A DNA stretch of 64,000 nucleotides from a phage. The position numbers were made by a program, and so were the translations under genes. Position 1 is the stretch's first letter. Each line of letters begins with the position of its first letter. Below are positions 3,586 to 64,000 of the stretch, piece after piece. The stretch lies in sequence record PZ386963.1; one strand, given 5' to 3'. The notes below the pieces were generated by a model. That model was not told the origin of the DNA, searched no databases, and worked only from the letters and a program-made list of their open reading frames with translations.

Positions 3586-3917
3586 TGGGAACATTAACTA
3601 TTGATGGTAAGAATAAAATCCTCGCCACGCTAACCCCAACGACTATTATTTTACACAATGTAGACCCAACGGCAGACCCTACAGCAAATAAGGTTACTCA
3701 GCCAGTGGCTATTTATTTTTCTGAACCGGATAATGGCTTAATTGCCTCAGAAGACACAGTTAACATTACTGTCCCAGCTTCTGCAACGGTCTCACACTAT
3801 AGCTTGTGGGATGCTAACGATAAATGCGTGGCAACTGGTGCTCTTAGCAAACCTCAATTCTTTGCTGAAGAAGGTATCTATGTTATCTCTTCAGTCTCTG
3901 TAGATTTAAACAAATAG
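3585..3917 (+). CDS. hypothetical head-module protein
   Basis: 110-aa ORF in structural operon. Confidence 0.3.
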   Translation: MGTLTIDGKNKILATLTPTTIILHNVDPTADPTANKVTQPVAIYFSEPDNGLIASEDTVNITVPASATVSHYSLWDANDKCVATGALSKPQFFAEEGIYVISSVSVDLNK

Positions 3918-3928
3918 GGTGAGTAAAA

Positions 3929-5275
3929 ATGAGTTCGAATATCTTCAGACTTGCTGATAGATTATTCAACCAACCTTTACTAGCCACTGAATCATTAGCT
4001 CACTCAGCAGCAACTTATGTGAATAACAGATTGCTGGGTGATGTCCAAGCAGCAGTAAACTTTGATAAACCCAAAGGTGAAGCAAGAAGTCTTTTAAAAG
4101 TAAAAGATGACATTGCTATTATCCCTATTATGGGTGGTTTAACCCATCGTATGACATTCATTGATGCAATGTGTACAGGTGGATTAAGCTCTTATGAAGG
4201 TTTGCGTAGAGGCTTTGACGAAGCTTTAGCAGATGAGTCAATCAAGACTATTGTTCTGCACATTGATTCTGGTGGTGGTGAAGCTTCAGGTTGCTTTGAA
4301 TTAGCACGTCACATTATGGCTTCAAGAGGCCAAAAGAAAATTATTGCTTATGTAGATGAGTTCGCTTGTTCCGCTGCATACGCTCTTGCATCTTCTGCTG
4401 AAGAAATTATTGCATCACCAGATGCAGATGTTGGTTCTATTGGTGTAATTATGGTTCATCAGGAATTAACTAAAGCATTTGAAAAGAATGGCGTGACAAT
4501 TAACGTCATCAAAGCTGGTGAGTTTAAAGGTATGGGTTCACCATTCCAAGCACTTTCAGAAGAAAGCAAAGAAAGACTTCAAAAGAGAATTAATGATACC
4601 TACGCAACCTTTACAGGTTTTGTAGCCGAATCTCGTAATCTCTCTGAAGAAGCTGTAAAGAATACTGAGGCGAATGTTTATTCTGCTCAGGAAGCTCTTG
4701 AACTTGGTTTAATTAACTCAATCATGTCTCAAGATGATTTCTTAAATTACTTACAAGGTTCTGAAGAGGCTCCTGTAAGTTTAAACGTTAACAATTCAGG
4801 TGAAGAAATGACTGAACAAGAAAAGCAAGAACTAGAAGCTTTGCGTCTTCAGGTTGCTCAAATGAAAGCTAAAGAACAGGAAGCTGCTTTGTCAGATTTG
4901 ACTAATAAGATTTCTGCTTCTGCTGAAGCTTTTGGGTTTGATGCAAAAGAAGCTGCAACGACTATTTTAGGTGCTGGTCTTGATAACCCTCTGAGTGTTC
5001 TGTTTATGAATGCTATGGAAGGTGCTAACCAGAAACTTAATGAAACTATCGCGTCCCACGCTTCTGCAATGGAAGAAAAAGAATCAGAAATCGCCAAGCT
5101 GAAAGAAACTGCTGGTGCTGTTCTTGAACATTCCAACGCTATGGAAGAAGTGGGTAATGACGGCGAAGCTGATTTGGTTGAAGAAGAAAAAGAACCAGCT
5201 AAAAATGCTTCCGAAGACACCGCTGAACAACGCAAACTGGCTCTCCAGAATGCTCTAAAATCTCTTATCAAATAA
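3929..5275 (+). CDS. prohead protease (S49/SppA-like fold) fused to coiled-coil scaffold domain
   Basis: N-terminal half has IAIIPIMGG..VLHIDSGGGEASG..CSAAYALASSAEEI pattern typical of S49 peptidases; C-terminal half is E/K/A-rich helical; position before capsid gene. Confidence 0.6.
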   Translation: MSSNIFRLADRLFNQPLLATESLAHSAATYVNNRLLGDVQAAVNFDKPKGEARSLLKVKDDIAIIPIMGGLTHRMTFIDAMCTGGLSSYEGLRRGFDEALADESIKTIVLHIDSGGGEASGCFELARHIMASRGQKKIIAYVDEFACSAAYALASSAEEIIASPDADVGSIGVIMVHQELTKAFEKNGVTINVIKAGEFKGMGSPFQALSEESKERLQKRINDTYATFTGFVAESRNLSEEAVKNTEANVYSAQEALELGLINSIMSQDDFLNYLQGSEEAPVSLNVNNSGEEMTEQEKQELEALRLQVAQMKAKEQEAALSDLTNKISASAEAFGFDAKEAATTILGAGLDNPLSVLFMNAMEGANQKLNETIASHASAMEEKESEIAKLKETAGAVLEHSNAMEEVGNDGEADLVEEEKEPAKNASEDTAEQRKLALQNALKSLIK

Positions 5276-51344: not shown

Positions 51345-51615
51345 AGAGAAGTGGGAGATTTTACCATTAGTCAGTGAAGGTGGTAATGGTTGTGAAATGT
51401 ACATGATACGTGGTCATGTTCCAGAACCAATTGCACTTGAGATGGTAAACAACTTTACAGATGGTTCTTACAAAGACTTAGGAGAGCCAACTATAAAGCA
51501 GCAATGGGTAAAGCCTGTACCAGACAGCACAGGTAACTGTAGTGTACTTTATCACGTTGTAGACCCTGCAAAATGCAAATCTGCAATGGCAGTAACAAAC
51601 GTAACTTTTGATTGA
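51337..51615 (+). CDS. hypothetical protein
   Basis: 92-aa ORF. Confidence 0.3.
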   Translation: MAKEKWEILPLVSEGGNGCEMYMIRGHVPEPIALEMVNNFTDGSYKDLGEPTIKQQWVKPVPDSTGNCSVLYHVVDPAKCKSAMAVTNVTFD

Positions 51616-52508
51616 GAGAGAAAACTATGAAAACTGTTATTGAAGCCGTCGTCACCGCACAAGAGAAATTCTTCCACACAGAAAAATTTAATATCATTCA
51701 ATTCCCATCTGGAGAAATTGGTGGAAACTTCTCTGAAGATTTTGTTAAGTTTACTGAGCGTAATGCTGGTAAGATTGACAATGTTATACTTACTGTACAG
51801 GGATATGACAAAGATACACTGTTTGCATTAGCTTTGGCTAAGGATGCCGTTGACAGTCTTGTTCCCCAGAAATCAGCGATGAAAACCGTTGTTTTCGGGT
51901 TCTTACCAAATGCTCGATATGACCGCCACATGTTCAAAGGTGATGCAGCAGCACTGAAAGTCTTTGCCAACCTAGTTAATGCAATGGGCTTTGATGCAGT
52001 ATGTGCTCTTGACCCTCACAGCAATGTTGCAGAAAACTTATTTAAGTGCTTTCAGAGCATGAAGCAAAAAGATGTGGCAGTACACTTTGCAAGTGACCCA
52101 CGCATTGATTTCTTGGTAGCCCCAGATGCAGGTGCAGCTAAGAAGACTGAAGATGCCGCTAAAGAGGTGGATAAACCATATATCACAATGGCTAAGGTGC
52201 GAAACCTTAAGACTGGAGAAATCACTGGTATGCGAATCCTTGACGATGTTGATTTGACCGATAAAACTGTCATGATTCTTGATGATATCTGTGATGGTGG
52301 TCGAACATTCGTAGAGGCAGCTAAACACCTACGTGAAGCAGGTGCAAAACGTGTGGAACTCTATGTAACTCATGGTATTTTCTCTAAAGGTGTTGAAAAC
52401 TTACTTGACAATGGTATTGACCATATCTACACTACAAACACTTTAGGTGAAGCTAAAGACCGTGGCTTAACACATTACGGCCAAGTTACTGTAGCAACCA
52501 TTGATTGA
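51612..52508 (+). CDS. ribose-phosphate pyrophosphokinase-like enzyme (Prs family; could be ADPR-pyrophosphate synthetase)
   Basis: Collinear with E. coli Prs; PRPP-binding loop VMILDDICDGGRT; C-terminus GAKRVELYVTHGIFS. Confidence 0.7.
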   Translation: MREKTMKTVIEAVVTAQEKFFHTEKFNIIQFPSGEIGGNFSEDFVKFTERNAGKIDNVILTVQGYDKDTLFALALAKDAVDSLVPQKSAMKTVVFGFLPNARYDRHMFKGDAAALKVFANLVNAMGFDAVCALDPHSNVAENLFKCFQSMKQKDVAVHFASDPRIDFLVAPDAGAAKKTEDAAKEVDKPYITMAKVRNLKTGEITGMRILDDVDLTDKTVMILDDICDGGRTFVEAAKHLREAGAKRVELYVTHGIFSKGVENLLDNGIDHIYTTNTLGEAKDRGLTHYGQVTVATID

Positions 52509-52517
52509 AACTTTATA

Positions 52518-52538
52518 GGGGCTTGAAAGCCCCATTTT
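52518..52538 (+). terminator. weak terminator-like hairpin
   Basis: GGGGC-TTGAAA-GCCCC then ATTTT. Confidence 0.35.
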
Positions 52539-52553
52539 GAGAGAGATTAAAAG

Positions 52554-54335
52554 ATGACTAAATCACTTTATGCAGTACCAGCAGGTTTAAACGCAGATGC
52601 TTACAAATCTGGTCATGTTTACCAGTATCCTAGTGCAACAGAGTACTTGATGTTCAACCTGACACCACGTAGCGACAAATGGTTTAACAGCCCTTTAGCA
52701 ATTGATGGTGTAGTGGCTTTTGGTATTCAACGTTTTGTTAAAGATTACTTGATAGACCACTGGAACGCCACTTTCTTTGAACGTGATAAAAAAGAAGCAA
52801 TTGACGAAATCTTAGAAGTCATGAATGGTGTTCTGGGTAAAGATACTATCGGTCGAGAGCATTGGGAAGCACTTCACGACTTAGGTTATCTGCCAGTTGA
52901 AGTATACGCTGTAGAAGAAGGCACAGTTGTCCCGATGCGTGTCCCAATGATTGTCTTCCAGAACACTGTTTCAGGTTTCCATTGGGTAGCAGGTTATCTG
53001 GAAGATGCTTTCTCTGCTGAGATTTGGAAGGCTTGCACCATTGCAACTATCGCATTGCACTACAAACGTATCTGTAAGAAGTGGGCTGACCTTACTTGCG
53101 ACAACGACTTACATTTACCTTATCAGTGCCATGACTTTGCTATGCGTGGTATGTCCGGCTTTACTGATGACGCATTTAACGCTGTAGGCCACTTAACCAG
53201 CTTTAAAGGAACTGATAGCTTCCCTGCTGTATACACGGCTAAACGCATCTATGGACAGTCTTACCCAATCTGTGATATTGGTAGCTCTGTACCAGCCACT
53301 GAACACTCTGTAATGTGTGCAAACATTGCTTGGGGAGGTGGTAATGAACTGATTGAAGAAGAAAGACGCTTTAAAGGTGAGTTACAAACCTTCCGTCGTT
53401 TCTTAACAGAAACTTACCCAACTGGTATTGCAAGTATTGTTTCAGATACTTATAACTTCTGGAGAACTGTGTCAGAAATCTTACCAGCACTCCGTAAAGA
53501 AATTATGGAACGTGATGGCAAACTGGTAATTCGTCCTGACTCTGGAGACCCTGTACATATTGTCACAGGTTATAAAGCAATCCACTTAGAGTGTGCTAAG
53601 AAGGCTTATTATGAGCACCTAAGCAAGCTGGAAGCCAGTGACACAATGTTGAATGCTGTTCTGAACATGAAGCTTGAAAACATCAGCTATGGTATTGCTG
53701 GATGGCTACTGTCAGAAGGCTACGAAATGGTTGTTGACAGAGAAGACTTTGAAGCTGCTGATACAGTGATGTTGAAAAATGCTTATATGGTTGGTTCTGC
53801 AAACGTTGTAACACGCCCTGTAGCTGAGATTGATGGAGCTATTAAGACACTGTACAACATCTTTGGGGGAACTATTAACTCTAAAGGGTTTAAGGTACTG
53901 GATGAGCACATCGGCCTTATCTATGGTGACTCTATCACGCTGGAACGTGCAAACGAAATCCTGAAGCGTCTGTATGAAATGGGTTTTGCAAGCTCTAACG
54001 TAGTGTTTGGTGTAGGTTCTTACACTTACCAGTACATGACTCGTGACACCTTTGCATTTGCTGTCAAAGCAACTCTTGCAAGCATTGGTGGTAAAGAGAT
54101 TATGCTTGCAAAAGACCCTAAAACAGATAGTGGTGTTAAGAAATCTGCCTTTGGTGGTGTAGCACCTATGTGGGATGGGGATAAGCTGAAAGCTGTAGAT
54201 GGCTATGGATTCCAGAGTTTTGCAGATGCACTTGACCACCCAGCTTGTGCTTTACGTTTAGTCTTTAGCGACTCTGAGCAGTTCGGTTACACAACTCTTG
54301 GTGATATTCGAAATAATATTGACAAGCAGCTTTAA
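52554..54335 (+). CDS. nadV: nicotinamide phosphoribosyltransferase-like enzyme (Nampt/NadV family; could be Namat)
   Basis: Shares ADAYKSGH, HDFAMRG, FKGTDS, PATEHS, VSDTYNFW, IRPDSGDP motifs with Nampt; 593 aa with an apparent insertion. Confidence 0.75.
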   Translation: MTKSLYAVPAGLNADAYKSGHVYQYPSATEYLMFNLTPRSDKWFNSPLAIDGVVAFGIQRFVKDYLIDHWNATFFERDKKEAIDEILEVMNGVLGKDTIGREHWEALHDLGYLPVEVYAVEEGTVVPMRVPMIVFQNTVSGFHWVAGYLEDAFSAEIWKACTIATIALHYKRICKKWADLTCDNDLHLPYQCHDFAMRGMSGFTDDAFNAVGHLTSFKGTDSFPAVYTAKRIYGQSYPICDIGSSVPATEHSVMCANIAWGGGNELIEEERRFKGELQTFRRFLTETYPTGIASIVSDTYNFWRTVSEILPALRKEIMERDGKLVIRPDSGDPVHIVTGYKAIHLECAKKAYYEHLSKLEASDTMLNAVLNMKLENISYGIAGWLLSEGYEMVVDREDFEAADTVMLKNAYMVGSANVVTRPVAEIDGAIKTLYNIFGGTINSKGFKVLDEHIGLIYGDSITLERANEILKRLYEMGFASSNVVFGVGSYTYQYMTRDTFAFAVKATLASIGGKEIMLAKDPKTDSGVKKSAFGGVAPMWDGDKLKAVDGYGFQSFADALDHPACALRLVFSDSEQFGYTTLGDIRNNIDKQL

Positions 54336-58587: not shown

Positions 58588-59136
58588 ATGAAGAAATTGA
58601 TTCTAGGTTTGTGCTTAATGTTTACAGCACACTTATCTTATGCAGTTGACTGCCCAGAGCTATCAATTAGCCAAAAAGTAAACATGTTAAAAGCTTACCA
58701 GTATGGTGAGAATAACATGGGTAAAGGTTGGGGTATCACTCTAGCTGCTATAGCCTTACAAGAGTCAGAGTTAGGTCTGAAGGTAGAGAATAAAAAGACA
58801 CATGATTATGGTATTTTCCAGAATCACTTGAAGACTGTTGTAAAGCGTAACAAAATTAGCCCTAATGTGGCTAAAAAGAAACTCTTAAAAGACTTTGACT
58901 ATGCTGCGAAGGAAACACACAAAGAACTTGAGTTTTGGACAAAGGTGCATGGTCAGCCAAAGTCAAAGAAGACTTTACAAAAAGTTTTAGCATCATATAA
59001 TGCTGGGTATTCGTACAGAATCCCTAAAGCTAAGAAATATTCTCAAGATGTCTATAACAATATGAAAGTAATCGCTCAATGTGAATTTGCAACAAACATT
59101 TCTAAGGTAAACCATGAAAAAATTAAGAAAGTCTGA
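58588..59136 (+). CDS. signal-peptide lytic transglycosylase (endolysin candidate)
   Basis: Signal peptide MKKLILGLCLMFTAHLSYA; SLT-like motifs ALQESELG, YGIFQ, ASYNAG. Confidence 0.5.
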   Translation: MKKLILGLCLMFTAHLSYAVDCPELSISQKVNMLKAYQYGENNMGKGWGITLAAIALQESELGLKVENKKTHDYGIFQNHLKTVVKRNKISPNVAKKKLLKDFDYAAKETHKELEFWTKVHGQPKSKKTLQKVLASYNAGYSYRIPKAKKYSQDVYNNMKVIAQCEFATNISKVNHEKIKKV

Positions 59137-59809
59137 TGAAGTATTGTGCCATGCTTATGACTTGCACCCTCATGAGTTAGGTCTTGATTCCTGTGTATGG
59201 ACTCCAGAACAGTGCAGGGATTTTGAAGACACCGCAAGAGAAGTTGTATGTTCACTTGAAGAGTTCCACACATCAGAACCAATTGTGAACGTTGTGGACA
59301 AAAAGACTGGACAAGCTATAGGTGTAAGTCGTGATAGCTTAGTCATAGTCAATAAAGACCTTGTAGAAAAAGGGAATCTCATCTTAGCAGATATTGATGG
59401 TGTTCTTACAAATTTTAATCACGAAGATTGTTCAACGGAATTGACTGACGGTTCATTCTCGCAGTATACCAATCTTCTTGATTCTGTAAGAGCAAAGCCG
59501 ACGTATGTTTTCAATATCATTGATGCAATTGCTAATCATGCTGCTGTTGGACTCTTGACAGCGAGAGGCGAATCTCAGAGAATACCTACTGAGATGTTTT
59601 TAAGGCATAACACAGAGCATGACTACATGCTTTTTATGCGTGGTTTTGGGACTAACTCTATAAGTGCAGAAAGTTTGAAAGTGAGGATGATTCAGTCTTG
59701 CATTCTGCCTTACTTTAATATAGTATGTTTTATAGAAGACACAGAGAAGAATGTGCAGAAGGTGAACAGAATCCTTCCACACATCAAAACCATGTTAGTT
59801 AAACATTGA
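59114..59809 (+). CDS. HAD-superfamily hydrolase (phosphatase/nucleotidase-like)
   Basis: HAD motif I ILADIDGVLT; downstream GLLTAR and EDTEKN consistent with motifs II and IV. Confidence 0.4.
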   Translation: MKKLRKSDEVLCHAYDLHPHELGLDSCVWTPEQCRDFEDTAREVVCSLEEFHTSEPIVNVVDKKTGQAIGVSRDSLVIVNKDLVEKGNLILADIDGVLTNFNHEDCSTELTDGSFSQYTNLLDSVRAKPTYVFNIIDAIANHAAVGLLTARGESQRIPTEMFLRHNTEHDYMLFMRGFGTNSISAESLKVRMIQSCILPYFNIVCFIEDTEKNVQKVNRILPHIKTMLVKH

Positions 59810-60847: not shown

Positions 60848-61113
60848 CAGAGAATCAAGATACTTTCTATGTAGAAGGTTACTTACTGTTACCACGACCA
60901 AAAGAAACTTATATGCGAATTGATTTCTCACCAACCATCATGGATAATGTGATGTGCCATATCTTTATGCAAGGTGTCACAGCACAACTTAAGCATGTTG
61001 GCAAAGAGTGCAAAATAAAGGTTGACACTCATCCAGAAATCAAAGAGAATCACTACACATGGTTCTTACCAGACTCTAAAGAAATCTTAGCAGTTCTTAA
61101 AACGAGGAAATGA
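60844..61113 (+). CDS. hypothetical protein
   Basis: 89-aa ORF. Confidence 0.3.
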   Translation: MTENQDTFYVEGYLLLPRPKETYMRIDFSPTIMDNVMCHIFMQGVTAQLKHVGKECKIKVDTHPEIKENHYTWFLPDSKEILAVLKTRK

Positions 61114-61424
61114 TTATGCAATTCCAGCCAACAAATCGTGGATTTTCTTATGCAGAATTTAAAGATGCTAAAGGGGAAATTTGTACTTTACAAGAGAGTT
61201 CATCATACGAACCATGTATCTGGTTAGGTGCTAAAGAGGTCTCTGTTCAGTACCTAGATAATGGCTGGAAAACACTTGATATCCCAGCATTAGTGGGCAA
61301 AGATTTTGTAGGTAACCAAAGAATGAAGCTCAATCAAGAACAGGTAAAAGAGTTGTTGCCGTACCTCCAATACTTTGCTGAAAATGGTGAATTACCAACA
61401 GAGGAACTTACAAATGCAGATTAA
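61110..61424 (+). CDS. hypothetical protein
   Basis: 104-aa ORF. Confidence 0.3.
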   Translation: MIMQFQPTNRGFSYAEFKDAKGEICTLQESSSYEPCIWLGAKEVSVQYLDNGWKTLDIPALVGKDFVGNQRMKLNQEQVKELLPYLQYFAENGELPTEELTNAD

Positions 61425-61740
61425 TGGAAGAGACTTTGTAGCCGTTTACTACGAGAAAGGCAAAGAGGTTGGTGTAGCACAAGTAACTTATGGCAATGGT
61501 AAGTGGCTATATGGGACAATCGCAGTAGTAGGAACAAGAAGTGATACAAAAACTTTTAAAGATTGTGTTGACCTTCTTGAAGAATCCATCCAGAATCATT
61601 GGTGTCTGATATGGATGACTGATAACGAAGTGATGGAGCGTTTCAAAAAGATTGATATCAACATTGACAGTATTGAGCATGTTGATTTATATGAGCTAAC
61701 TGAGAAGGTAAACTATGAAAGTAATACTAGCCAGAGATAA
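61414..61740 (+). CDS. hypothetical protein
   Basis: Start taken at ATG 61414 within ORF-track ORF 61375..61740. Confidence 0.3.
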   Translation: MQINGRDFVAVYYEKGKEVGVAQVTYGNGKWLYGTIAVVGTRSDTKTFKDCVDLLEESIQNHWCLIWMTDNEVMERFKKIDINIDSIEHVDLYELTEKVNYESNTSQR

Positions 61741-61942
61741 AAAGACACGAAAACTTATCAGGTCAGCAGTGTTCATTGGACGAAATGAGGTCATCCCATT
61801 TACAGCAAATGATGTGATAGCTTACAGGAAGAACTTAGTATTCACTGACTGCTTACGTGGCTTCATCTCTGAACCATTGGAAGACTTTAAAAGTCGTTGT
61901 GGTAAAGGTATCATCATTCAAGAGGCAATTATTCATGGCTGA
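61715..61942 (+). CDS. hypothetical small protein
   Basis: 75-aa ORF. Confidence 0.25.
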   Translation: MKVILARDKKTRKLIRSAVFIGRNEVIPFTANDVIAYRKNLVFTDCLRGFISEPLEDFKSRCGKGIIIQEAIIHG

Positions 61943-62135
61943 CTTCTGTAAAGACTGTTCTATCGAAATGTTCGGACGTGATACAGGTGACTTAAAAGGT
62001 CTTATCACTGAAGATGACTTTAAAGCTGGTTATGCAATGCCAGTAATCTGTGAAGGTTGTGGGTGCATCTGGGTAGACCATGAGGGGCAACGTGTAAAAC
62101 CTTCAGAAGATAAAGAATCTTGGGAGAGATGTTAA
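61938..62135 (+). CDS. small zinc-ribbon protein
   Basis: CKDC ... CEGCGC cysteine pairs; start taken at ATG 61938 within ORF 61857..62135; stop abuts macro-domain gene start. Confidence 0.35.
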   Translation, partial: ADFCKDCSIEMFGRDTGDLKGLITEDDFKAGYAMPVICEGCGCIWVDHEGQRVKPSEDKESWERC

Positions 62136-62921
62136 ATGGGTATTGTAAAAATCATCAATGGTGATATCTTTGCTGCATTTGATAAAGGTAAGTTTGACAT
62201 CATTGGTCATGGTTGTAACTGTATGAACCTAATGGGTGCAGGTATCGCTGATAAGATTTCTAAACTTTACCCAAAAGCATATGAGACCGATACAGAAGTT
62301 TATCTATATGCAGGTGGTATAGGCCACAAACCCTGTGAAAATTTACTGGGTAATTTCTCCGTAGCACGTTTAAAACAAGGTCGTATAGCTAACCTTTACA
62401 CTCAGCTTAAGACTGGTAAAGATGCACGATACAGTGCTTTAGAGTCATCTTTGAAACAGCTTAACAGATACTGTGAAGTTAACCAGTTGAAGAAGGTTGG
62501 TCTACCTATGATTGGTGCAGGTATCGGTGGACTTGACCCTCAAGCTGTCACAGTTATCATCAATCAGGTGATGAAGGGTGTAGATGTTTATCTGTATGTC
62601 TATGAAGGAGAGATGTACCACAAGTTACGCTCAGGTTGGAAGAACTACTGTGAACCAGAATACTTTGCAGGTGTAGCAGTGTTCACAGATAACGCAGTTA
62701 CCCTCTTCAGACGAAGAAAAGGTAAGATACATCAAAGTAACCCTCCGGTTGAAAAGATGTCTCTAAGTAATGCTCTAGTTACCCACCTGTCGAAGAGCAA
62801 TCACAGAATTGCTGTAACATTTGGTAGTGATGCAGAAGCTTATATCTATGCAAGAACTGATGAGGATATCGAGGCAATCTTCTCTTCACCAGAAGTTACC
62901 TTCTTAGACGCAAAGAACTAA
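62136..62921 (+). CDS. macro-domain (ADP-ribose binding/processing) protein with C-terminal extension
   Basis: INGDIF..DIIGHGCNCMNLMGAGIA..GLPMIGAGIGG follows the macro-domain GDIT/NAAN/GGGV/glycine-loop order; 261 aa. Confidence 0.5.
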   Translation: MGIVKIINGDIFAAFDKGKFDIIGHGCNCMNLMGAGIADKISKLYPKAYETDTEVYLYAGGIGHKPCENLLGNFSVARLKQGRIANLYTQLKTGKDARYSALESSLKQLNRYCEVNQLKKVGLPMIGAGIGGLDPQAVTVIINQVMKGVDVYLYVYEGEMYHKLRSGWKNYCEPEYFAGVAVFTDNAVTLFRRRKGKIHQSNPPVEKMSLSNALVTHLSKSNHRIAVTFGSDAEAYIYARTDEDIEAIFSSPEVTFLDAKN

Positions 62922-62990
62922 GAAACTTCGTAGTATATTCACAATAGACTAAGCCTTTCTTATCTGGTAAATTTTTCAGGTAAGGAGGGC

Positions 62991-63176
62991 TTTTTCATTT
63001 CAGATTTGTGCAGGTAAAGTTCTGTAGAGAAATCTATAGAGAAAATTTTGAACTCCAAAGAGAAAATTCATTTTCAAACTGTGCAGGTAATCTCCAAAGA
63101 GCTTTTTCATTTTCAAAACGTGCAGACCCCGCTCAGGTCGGGCAAGAAAAATCATTTTAGAATTGTGCAGGTAGGT
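62991..63176 (+). repeat. four direct repeats, consensus TCATTTTCAAANNGTGCAGGTA, plus tandem GTAGGTGGG x2
   Basis: Copies near 62991, 63064, 63103, 63147; GTGCAG core conserved. Confidence 0.7.
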
Positions 63177-63348
63177 GGGTGTAGGTGGGGCTGTCGCCAT
63201 TTCTCACAAGGCTACCACATCTGAAAATAAAAGTCAACAGAAAAATTTGTAGCGGATTGAAAAATAATTCTTGATTGTAGTTCTGTTTTGTGTTAGTCGT
63301 GCGCGCCCGTTTCATTCCATTTTTGCAAAAATATTTTTAAAATTCCTA

Positions 63349-63377
63349 TTGACTCTTTGAGTATGGTTATCTAATAT
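63349..63377 (+). promoter_or_regulatory. sigma70-like promoter TTGACT-17-TAATAT
   Basis: Read directly, about 50 bp upstream of 63428 gene; identical hexamers to 22833 element. Confidence 0.45.
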
Positions 63378-63427
63378 TTGCATCAGACGGGCAATCAAGC
63401 CCACTTCCTAAACTGGAGAATCTAAAA

Positions 63428-63634
63428 ATGCTTTACAGTCGTGAATTGATGGTTACAACTAACGTTAACACAAAGGTAAAACGTTTTTACATGCAAATTT
63501 GTGGCGTATGGTCTAGAATATCAGAGGCTGACTATTGCAACTATGTAGAAACAGCTATAAACTCTAATTGCTACCTTACAAGAAATACTAAGAATTTTAC
63601 AAGGCAAACAGCGATTTGCTATTACGATAAATAA
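63428..63634 (+). CDS. hypothetical small Cys-containing protein
   Basis: 68-aa ORF with GGAGAATCT RBS. Confidence 0.3.
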   Translation: MLYSRELMVTTNVNTKVKRFYMQICGVWSRISEADYCNYVETAINSNCYLTRNTKNFTRQTAICYYDK

Positions 63635-63721
63635 AAGTACTTTACATGGGGCTTAAAAGTCTGTAAAGTAAGCCCCAGATAAAGAGCTTTACCAACAACC
63701 TTAAACTAGGAGAATCTGAAA

Positions 63722-64000
63722 ATGGCATATCGCGCACCTAAATTCATCAACAAAGACAACTTTCGCAACGCACTGGAGAAGTCACTTGATGAGGATTTTA
63801 AAGGCAATGTTATTGTTGTCCACGCATTCAATTTTAAGTATGATATTAACGGGAACAGAATCAACCATTACACGGCAACAATGTTAGATGGCACACTTTC
63901 AAGTGAAAAAGCCATTATCAATGCACTTGCAGGACGTGGGAAAAACCTGATAAGATGCGATAAGAGACGTTATCAAGGTGGCGCATATGGTTACGATGAT
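63722..64000 (+). CDS. hypothetical protein, 3'-truncated at window end
   Basis: ATG with near-identical RBS context to 63428 gene; open to window end. Confidence 0.3.
   Translation, partial: MAYRAPKFINKDNFRNALEKSLDEDFKGNVIVVHAFNFKYDINGNRINHYTATMLDGTLSSEKAIINALAGRGKNLIRCDKRRYQGGAYGYDD

Follow-up and report, generated by a model that had tools for sequence, protein, structure and literature searches.

A Felixounavirus macrodomain protein of the phage Tk.4/AdfM-Adpp family with an orphan, fast-diverging C-terminal domain

Introduction

What does a phage gain from a macrodomain protein that is encoded away from its own operon for rebuilding NAD+? This question is raised by a gene for a protein of 261 amino acids (aa) in sequence record PZ386963.1, a stretch of 64,000 nt (the window, to which all coordinates refer) from a Felixounavirus, a Felix O1-type myovirus. 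Salmonella phage DaR-2019a, Felix O1 and Escherichia phage JohannRWettstein (Bas63) share 94-97% identity with the 1.7 kb around the locus, a region matched by 240 phage records. The Bas63 counterpart of the gene is g95 (bas63_0095, annotated as 'putative phosphatase'), and that of the zinc-ribbon-like open reading frame (ORF) preceding it is g94 (bas63_0094, hypothetical). In Bas63 both come after rIIA, rIIB, a PNKP-like gene and the spanins, on the same strand. A preliminary description of the window proposed that the macro protein reverses a host defence based on ADP-ribosylation or, alternatively, that it feeds ADP-ribose (ADPR) into a nearby NAD module.

Both ideas match mechanisms published for homologues. 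Tk.4 of phage T4 was named AdfM after a transposon screen, and its clean knockout sensitises T4 to DarTG2 (bioRxiv 10.1101/2025.11.20.689424). Gp104 of PhiKZ, also called AdfM, strips DarT2-made ADP-ribose from DNA in vitro (PMC13309987). The macro protein Adpp of NARP1 operons converts ADPR-1''-phosphate (ADPR-1P) to ADPR, letting NARP1 rebuild NAD+; this conversion was obtained with purified Adpp of Vibrio phage Gary, which is needed to overcome the RES-domain defence aRES, and the three aRES genes tested came from Escherichia, Klebsiella and Enterobacter, i.e. from enterobacterial hosts (bioRxiv 10.64898/2026.01.28.702374). NARP1 itself was discovered experimentally in Bas63, where it consists of genes g79-g80 (Adps and Namat). 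The macro family is thus already known from the literature of 2025-2026, and the new element described here is the orphan, fast-evolving C-terminal domain of the protein.

Results

A macrodomain of the TARG1/DarG/Poa1p class

The 261-aa ORF was confirmed, and the motifs on which it had been recognised as a macro protein are all present: GDIF at residues 9-12, GHGCNCMNLMGAGIA at residues 24-38 and GLPMIGAGIGG at residues 122-132. The Pfam model Macro (PF01661) matched residues 25-141 with E=9.9e-8 and 32.4 bits, against a gathering score of 22, and PHROG 335 was matched with E=1e-112. In a profile search of the PDB (31 homologues), TARG1 (4e-17), DarG of M. tuberculosis (5e-16), Poa1p (4e-15) and DarG of T. 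aquaticus (1e-13) were found. The AlphaFold2 model of the protein, with a predicted local distance difference test score (pLDDT) of 89.5 and a predicted template modelling score (pTM) of 0.88, shows the three-layer alpha/beta/alpha macro fold. Foldseek related it with probability 1.00 to TARG1, DarG, Poa1p and viral Mac1 at target-normalised template modelling scores (TM) of 0.7-0.86, the best matches being TARG1, DarG and Poa1p (E about 5e-10, TM 0.76-0.86). Structure prediction, the check that had been proposed for the macrodomain claim, therefore upholds it.

Among the PADLOC and NCBIfam models, only DarG was matched (6e-13 and 1.5e-12, respectively), and this by the macro part alone. In the PADLOC model, positions 18-146 of 329 align; in the NCBIfam equivalog NF048014, positions 4-154 of 338 align, with a score of 47.5 bits versus a cutoff of 250.

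The motifs of the macrodomain are H25-G-C-N28-C, M33-G-A-G-I-A, N86-L-Y-T-Q90 and P124-x-I-G-A-G-I-G-G132. Residues G26, N28, C29, M33, G36, A38, N86, L87, T89, Q90, P124, G127 and G129 are invariant in the homologues, and the loops M33-G-A-G-I-A38 and G127-A-G-I-G-G132 are invariant or nearly so in all 31. The same holds for H25, which is replaced by Gln in the Kolesnikvirus relatives. The invariant Gln90 aligns with the catalytic Lys of TARG1 (K84), DarG (K80) and PhiKZ gp104, and Gly131 aligns with D125 of TARG1. H25 falls on H23 of Poa1p (H23-S-C-N-C), the residue mutated in PDB entry 6LFS, but S30 and F152 of Poa1p are not kept, their places being taken by L32 and G131. As judged from these alignments, the protein is a member of the TARG1/DarG/Poa1p class whose catalytic residues are not of the DarG type; because the catalytic Lys is Gln90 and D125 of TARG1 is Gly131, its chemistry must differ from that of DarG.

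A structural role in the virion had been named as the finding that would speak against an enzyme. No mention of g94 or g95 was found in the Bas63 cryo-EM paper, which so lends no support to such a role, or in the PhageMaP essentiality paper.

A third branch of the Tk.4/AdfM-Adpp family

Tk.4 is the best-scoring characterised phage homologue, with 84 bits and 35% identity over residues 3-160. The two proteins share HGCNC...MG(A/S)G(I/V)A, NLYTQ and P-x-IG-x-GI-x-GG, including the Gln that replaces the catalytic Lys of DarG and TARG1. However, Tk.4 is a single domain of 159 aa, whereas the window protein carries an added domain; the third motif continues as GGDW in Tk.4 and as GGLD here, and the T4 gene has a different neighbourhood (vs - tk.4 - tk.3). 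The second relative is the NARP1-embedded macro protein of Vibrio phage GRLPWR (54 bits, 28% identity), in which gp178-180 correspond to Adps-macro-Namat and gp179 has the family motifs. Adpp likewise belongs to the same macro family, with the Poa1p-like H-x-C-N-C, and the phage of the window also encodes Adps and Namat. Yet Adpp consists of one domain only, about 158 aa long, and is encoded between these two genes, while the macro gene of the window is located 7.8 kb away from them and encodes an extra domain. Since Tk.4 and the Adpp-like GRLPWR protein score 85 bits against each other, Tk.4-type AdfM and Adpp are, on sequence similarity, one family, of which the window protein is a third branch.

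PhiKZ AdfM gave only 26 bits with the window protein. The DarG structures (T. aquaticus 5M31/5M3E, M. tuberculosis 5M3I) and PhiKZ gp104 resemble it in fold and class (Foldseek E about 5e-10, target-normalised TM about 0.8), and the architecture of DarG, an N-terminal macrodomain followed by a second, C-terminal domain, is echoed. Nevertheless, the motifs of this type, NTVN-x-VGVMG, FPTK with the catalytic Lys and PPLG-x-(A/G)NGG, are all missing from the window protein, scores are 26-44 bits, and the NCBIfam DarG model, whose C-terminal part is the DarT-binding domain, aligns with the macro part only. N23 of PhiKZ AdfM, an Asn needed for full activity, aligns with the invariant N28. Human TARG1 (OARD1) and yeast Poa1p are the best matches among solved structures by profile and fold, and the H-x-C-N-C of Poa1p is kept, but neither of them has the C-terminal domain. 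We also observed that the two proteins named AdfM are of different macro lineages, PhiKZ gp104 being DarG-like (97 bits with M. tuberculosis DarG) with the catalytic Lys, and Tk.4 carrying Gln.

The loci of these relatives were surveyed in 79 IMG/VR loci and further ones (L numbers). In a neighbour-joining tree, calculated without support values, two-domain proteins of 246-264 aa from Felixounavirus, Mooglevirus/Suspvirus, Kolesnikvirus and two metagenomic lineages formed a clade of their own, apart from the clade of Tk.4 as well as from the NARP1-adjacent one, with star-like deep branches. This tree therefore did not place the protein with either AdfM or Adpp. Among the metagenomic family members, P0026 (339 aa) is a fusion to cREC_REC, a cyclic-phosphate-processing receiver domain (PF20274, E=5e-7), which points to processing of small ADPR-phosphate molecules by at least some members, as far as domain composition can tell.

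An orphan C-terminal domain

Beyond about residue 157 the protein had no significant Pfam match, and the statement that it ends in an extension of about 100 aa with no recognisable motif holds for residues 158-261. No relative of this domain was found outside its own protein family in 1.84 billion representative proteins, the PDB or BFVD, and no solved structure was similar to it in sequence or structure. It is predicted to be beta-rich, with six beta-strands followed by a C-terminal helix, and is possibly PH-like. P174, G179 and Y236 are its conserved residues.

The domain has diverged at about twice the rate of the macrodomain (50% versus 78% identity, and 20% versus 43%). Moreover, three Felixounaviruses (L003, L034 and L035) carry a replaced macro allele which is 42% identical overall and 23% in the C-terminal domain. 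Their flanks are 95-98% identical up to position 62278 of the window, and similarity returns at 75-87% from about 63107; the recombined stretch thus extends from behind about codon 48 of the macro gene to the repeat region that follows the gene. As sequence patterns, fast divergence and allele replacement suit a gene under diversifying or arms-race pressure.

Kolesnikvirus loci of the Erwinia phage phiEa104/phiEa21-4 type encode macro proteins of 260 aa (L036, 8483-9265; L037, 9998-10780) directly after the spanins and without a zinc-ribbon gene. Although their extension has the same length, it was rejected as a homologue of the Felix-type domain, as hhalign found nothing. Isoelectric points (pI) were also considered as a clue to DNA binding and proved uninformative: the values for macro and C-terminal domains are spread over a wide range, and the two known AdfM proteins are both acidic.

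Gene layout and surroundings

The coordinates of the features are collected in Table 1.

Table 1. Features of the macro locus and of related genes in the window
Feature	Coordinates	Strand	Description
Zinc-ribbon-like ORF	61935..62135	+	66 aa, pI 4.4, C5/C8/C39/C42; Bas63 g94; PHROG 2210
Macro gene (whole ORF)	62136-62921	+	261 aa; Bas63 g95
Macrodomain, residues 1-157	62136..62606	+	Phage Tk.4/AdfM-Adpp family; TARG1/DarG/Poa1p-like class
Orphan C-terminal domain, residues 158-261, and stop codon	62607..62921	+	Six beta-strands then helix
Intrinsic-terminator-like hairpin	62951..62992	+	17-bp stem then U-run
NARP1 operon (Adps 51612-52508, Namat 52554-54335)	51612..54335	+	Equals Bas63 g79-g80
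PNKP-like gene	59114-59809		Few genes upstream of the macro gene

The stop codon of the ribbon ORF (TAA, 62133-62135) directly abuts the macro ATG, as had been described, but the ribbon ATG is at 61935, so that the start given previously, 61938, lies 3 nt inside the gene. Each of the two genes has its own Shine-Dalgarno sequence, AAGAGG (61920-61925) for the ribbon and GGGAGAG (62122-62128) for the macro gene, and every gene of this block overlaps or abuts its neighbour. The position of the macro gene at the 3' end of the block also stood up: 30 nt past its stop codon there is the terminator-like hairpin (dG -26.2 kcal/mol, z = -5.06; none of 200 shuffles was as good), which closes the transcription unit and is followed by a 500-nt intergenic region. 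An Rfam scan of 61000-64000 matched no RNA family.

The NAD module mentioned in the preliminary description exists and is NARP1: the upstream ORF is PRPP-synthetase-like (Pfam Pribosyltran/Pribosyl_synth) and the downstream one Nampt-like (NAPRTase/NAMPT_N), with agreement from NCBIfam. It is located upstream of the macro gene on the same strand, about 14 genes apart (Bas63 g80 versus g95), which leaves the macro gene outside the operon and beyond the 'within two genes' used to define NARP1-AP. ADPR set free by the macro enzyme could nonetheless be used by NARP1. Where the flank of a Felix-like locus extends far enough upstream, NARP1 genes were in most cases found 7-8 kb from the macro gene, and in the Kolesnikvirus locus L037 a Namat fragment is present about 10 kb upstream. 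Single-domain relatives adjoin Namat in L065, L066 and L078. In T4-like loci there was no NARP1 within 10 kb. T4 is not known to carry NARP1.

Several observations concern other parts of the region. ORF 61375-61740 is listed with a TTG start, but its true start is probably an ATG near 61411, as suggested by the match to PHROG 4453, which begins only at residue 14, and by the L034 homologue, which starts further in (MQINGRDF...). After the macro terminator, the intergenic region contains four direct copies (62986-63170) of a 28-34-nt element, (A/T)TTCATTT(T)CA(A/G)A..GTGCAG(G), spaced 39-73 nt apart. When a 20-nt consensus was searched with up to 3 mismatches, 3 copies were obtained where chance predicts 0.16, and the rest of the 64 kb contained none. 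From their arrangement these repeats may serve as iterons or as binding sites of a regulator; the two small ORFs annotated on the reverse strand of this region in Bas63 may be spurious. Further downstream, short conserved intergenic cassettes lie at 63382-63430 and 63628-63726, with a promoter-like TTGACT-17-TAATAT at 63349-63377 followed by a ribosome-binding-site region. In the related loci L025, L026, L034 and L035, the cassettes recur many times before small genes downstream of the macro gene, a pattern which suggests that these small genes form a series, each with a promoter of its own and all with a common leader.

Discussion

From the fold, the family and the conserved ligand-binding loops, we infer an activity and a substrate. 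By analogy with its homologues, the macro protein is most likely a catalytically active hydrolase of the phage Tk.4/AdfM-Adpp family that serves counter-defence by cleaving the substituent at C1'' of ADP-ribose. Its gene would be the final one of a long transcription unit running rightward. In the version that we tentatively prefer, while giving it somewhat less than an even chance, the enzyme would remove the ADP-ribose placed by a DarT2-type toxin on thymidines of single-stranded phage DNA, as for Tk.4, and replication would be restored.

Reversal of DarT2-type modification is supported by the sensitivity of the T4 Tk.4 knockout to DarTG2, Tk.4 being the nearest characterised phage relative, and by the activity on DNA of PhiKZ AdfM, whose N23 aligns with N28. 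It is also supported by DarG being the only model matched in the defence and NCBIfam libraries and by the location of the macro gene outside the NARP1 operon, and an arms-race gene fits because of the allelic replacement and the fast divergence. Several points weigh against it. The catalytic Lys of DarG and TARG1 and the Asp of TARG1 are replaced, although Tk.4 has the same Gln. The evidence on Tk.4 is genetic in kind (bioRxiv 10.1101/2025.11.20.689424), and Tk.4 is as similar to the Adpp-like protein as it is to the window protein. The two-domain clade is sister to neither group in the tree without support values, and the phage carries NARP1, which fits the role of Adpp.

A role of the Adpp type is possible, but we regard it as rather unlikely. 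The protein would convert ADPR-1P, which aRES and other NAD+ phosphorylases with a RES domain produce, to ADPR, from which the phage's own NARP1 would then make NAD+; it would be a NARP1-AP encoded in trans. The same macro family is found between Adps and Namat in GRLPWR and next to Namat in other loci, Gary Adpp carries out this conversion and is needed against aRES, and the aRES genes tested are from enterobacterial hosts. In addition, the Poa1p-type H-x-C-N-C is present in the family, with H25 on Poa1p H23, and NARP1 recurs at a similar distance in most of the Felix-like loci with a sufficient flank, with the Namat fragment of L037 further upstream. Nevertheless, that distance exceeds the two genes allowed for NARP1-AP, similarity to the Adpp-like protein is below that to Tk.4, Kolesnikvirus members of the same clade have Gln for His25, and two Poa1p residues, S30 and F152, are replaced. 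Reversal of DarT2 modification and the Adpp role are not exclusive, and the enzyme may well be bifunctional, also supplying ADPR to NARP1. Sequence, phylogeny and context do not decide between the two.

Enzymes of the TARG1/Poa1p class accept several substrates, so that another ADP-ribose conjugate or metabolite has to be considered: RNA or protein ADP-ribosylated by other systems of the host, O-acetyl-ADPR, or the ADPR-1''-phosphate or ADPR-cyclic phosphate that arises as a by-product of an RNA repair linked to the PNKP-like gene. A survey arguing that phage macro proteins mostly target soluble ADPR derivatives (PMC9503650) would favour this, as would the fusion of P0026 to a cyclic-phosphate-processing domain. 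A PNKP-like gene also precedes the macro gene at a distance of a few genes, both in the window and in L004 and L005, two distant loci, but this synteny may be inherited gene order. We consider these substrates unlikely, since no Tpt1/KptA, RNA ligase or ADP-ribosyltransferase is annotated in Bas63 1-50,000 and 56,842-70,544, and experimental precedent is lacking within the Tk.4/AdfM-Adpp phage family.

As for the orphan domain, its isolation and its divergence are matters of observation, and we infer for it a role as an accessory module for binding either a host protein or the substrate. Single-domain relatives work without it, so that the chemistry should not depend on it. A bolder proposal, which we regard as doubtful, is that it forms a second, non-enzymatic counter-defence module, binding and thereby blocking DarT2, a RES/aRES NADase or another host effector, or tethering the enzyme to its substrate, so that the whole would be a phage-built functional analogue of DarG, with a macro eraser and a toxin-binding domain, made from an unrelated fold. 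If this is true, the unrelated 100-aa extension of Kolesnikvirus and the replaced Felixounavirus allele would represent alternative specificities.

The abutting genes had suggested to the preliminary description that ribbon and macro protein are co-translated. The ribbon ORF (MADFCKDC...CEGCG..., CxxC-30-CxxC) has two CxxC knuckles whose four Cys residues are invariant in 8 homologues; it matches PHROG 2210 (E=3e-41) and no Pfam, NCBIfam or PADLOC model, and its best PDB match, eS27, is weak (E=0.07). A translationally coupled two-component system, in which the ribbon would for example target or regulate the macro enzyme, might be read from the contiguous stop and start codons and from the adjacency kept in 30 of 30 loci of the Felixounavirus/Mooglevirus/Suspvirus type. 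However, abutment is general in the block, the ribbon is absent before the two-domain macro gene in Kolesnikvirus and L005, and its homologues in L086-L088 (50-56% identity) are followed by unrelated genes without a macro match. Likewise, there is no co-variation, as a 100% identical ribbon stands beside the divergent Felixounavirus macro allele. Coupling is therefore improbable, and the ribbon is probably a syntenic neighbour, unlikely to be a functional partner, its adjacency being read as inherited gene order. In the distant two-domain locus L004, a 63-aa ORF with four Cys (3810-4001; CPKC...CNEC) also overlaps the macro start, an arrangement that could be counted for coupling and that may be convergence or coincidence; as a diverged ribbon homologue this ORF was rejected (hhalign probability 1%).

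Finally, a non-catalytic binder, sponge or sensor of ADP-ribose, which the absence of the catalytic Lys and Asp of TARG1 might suggest, is very improbable, because the same Gln is found in Tk.4, with its genetic anti-DarTG2 phenotype, and in GRLPWR gp179, whose Gary counterpart is enzymatically active, and because little or no variation occurs at N28, at H25 and in the two glycine loops.

Felix O1, Bas63 and other Felixounaviruses serve as workhorses of phage typing, biocontrol and therapy, and Bas63 is the phage in which NARP1 was discovered. To know which defences based on ADP-ribose or NAD the macro enzyme neutralises would help to explain and predict their host range. At stake are whether NARP1 phages can escape aRES by means of a phosphatase encoded elsewhere in the genome, and whether Tk.4-type AdfM and Adpp represent a single promiscuous kind of enzyme or two specialised kinds. 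Being small and tractable, the orphan C-terminal domain may reveal how such enzymes are targeted.

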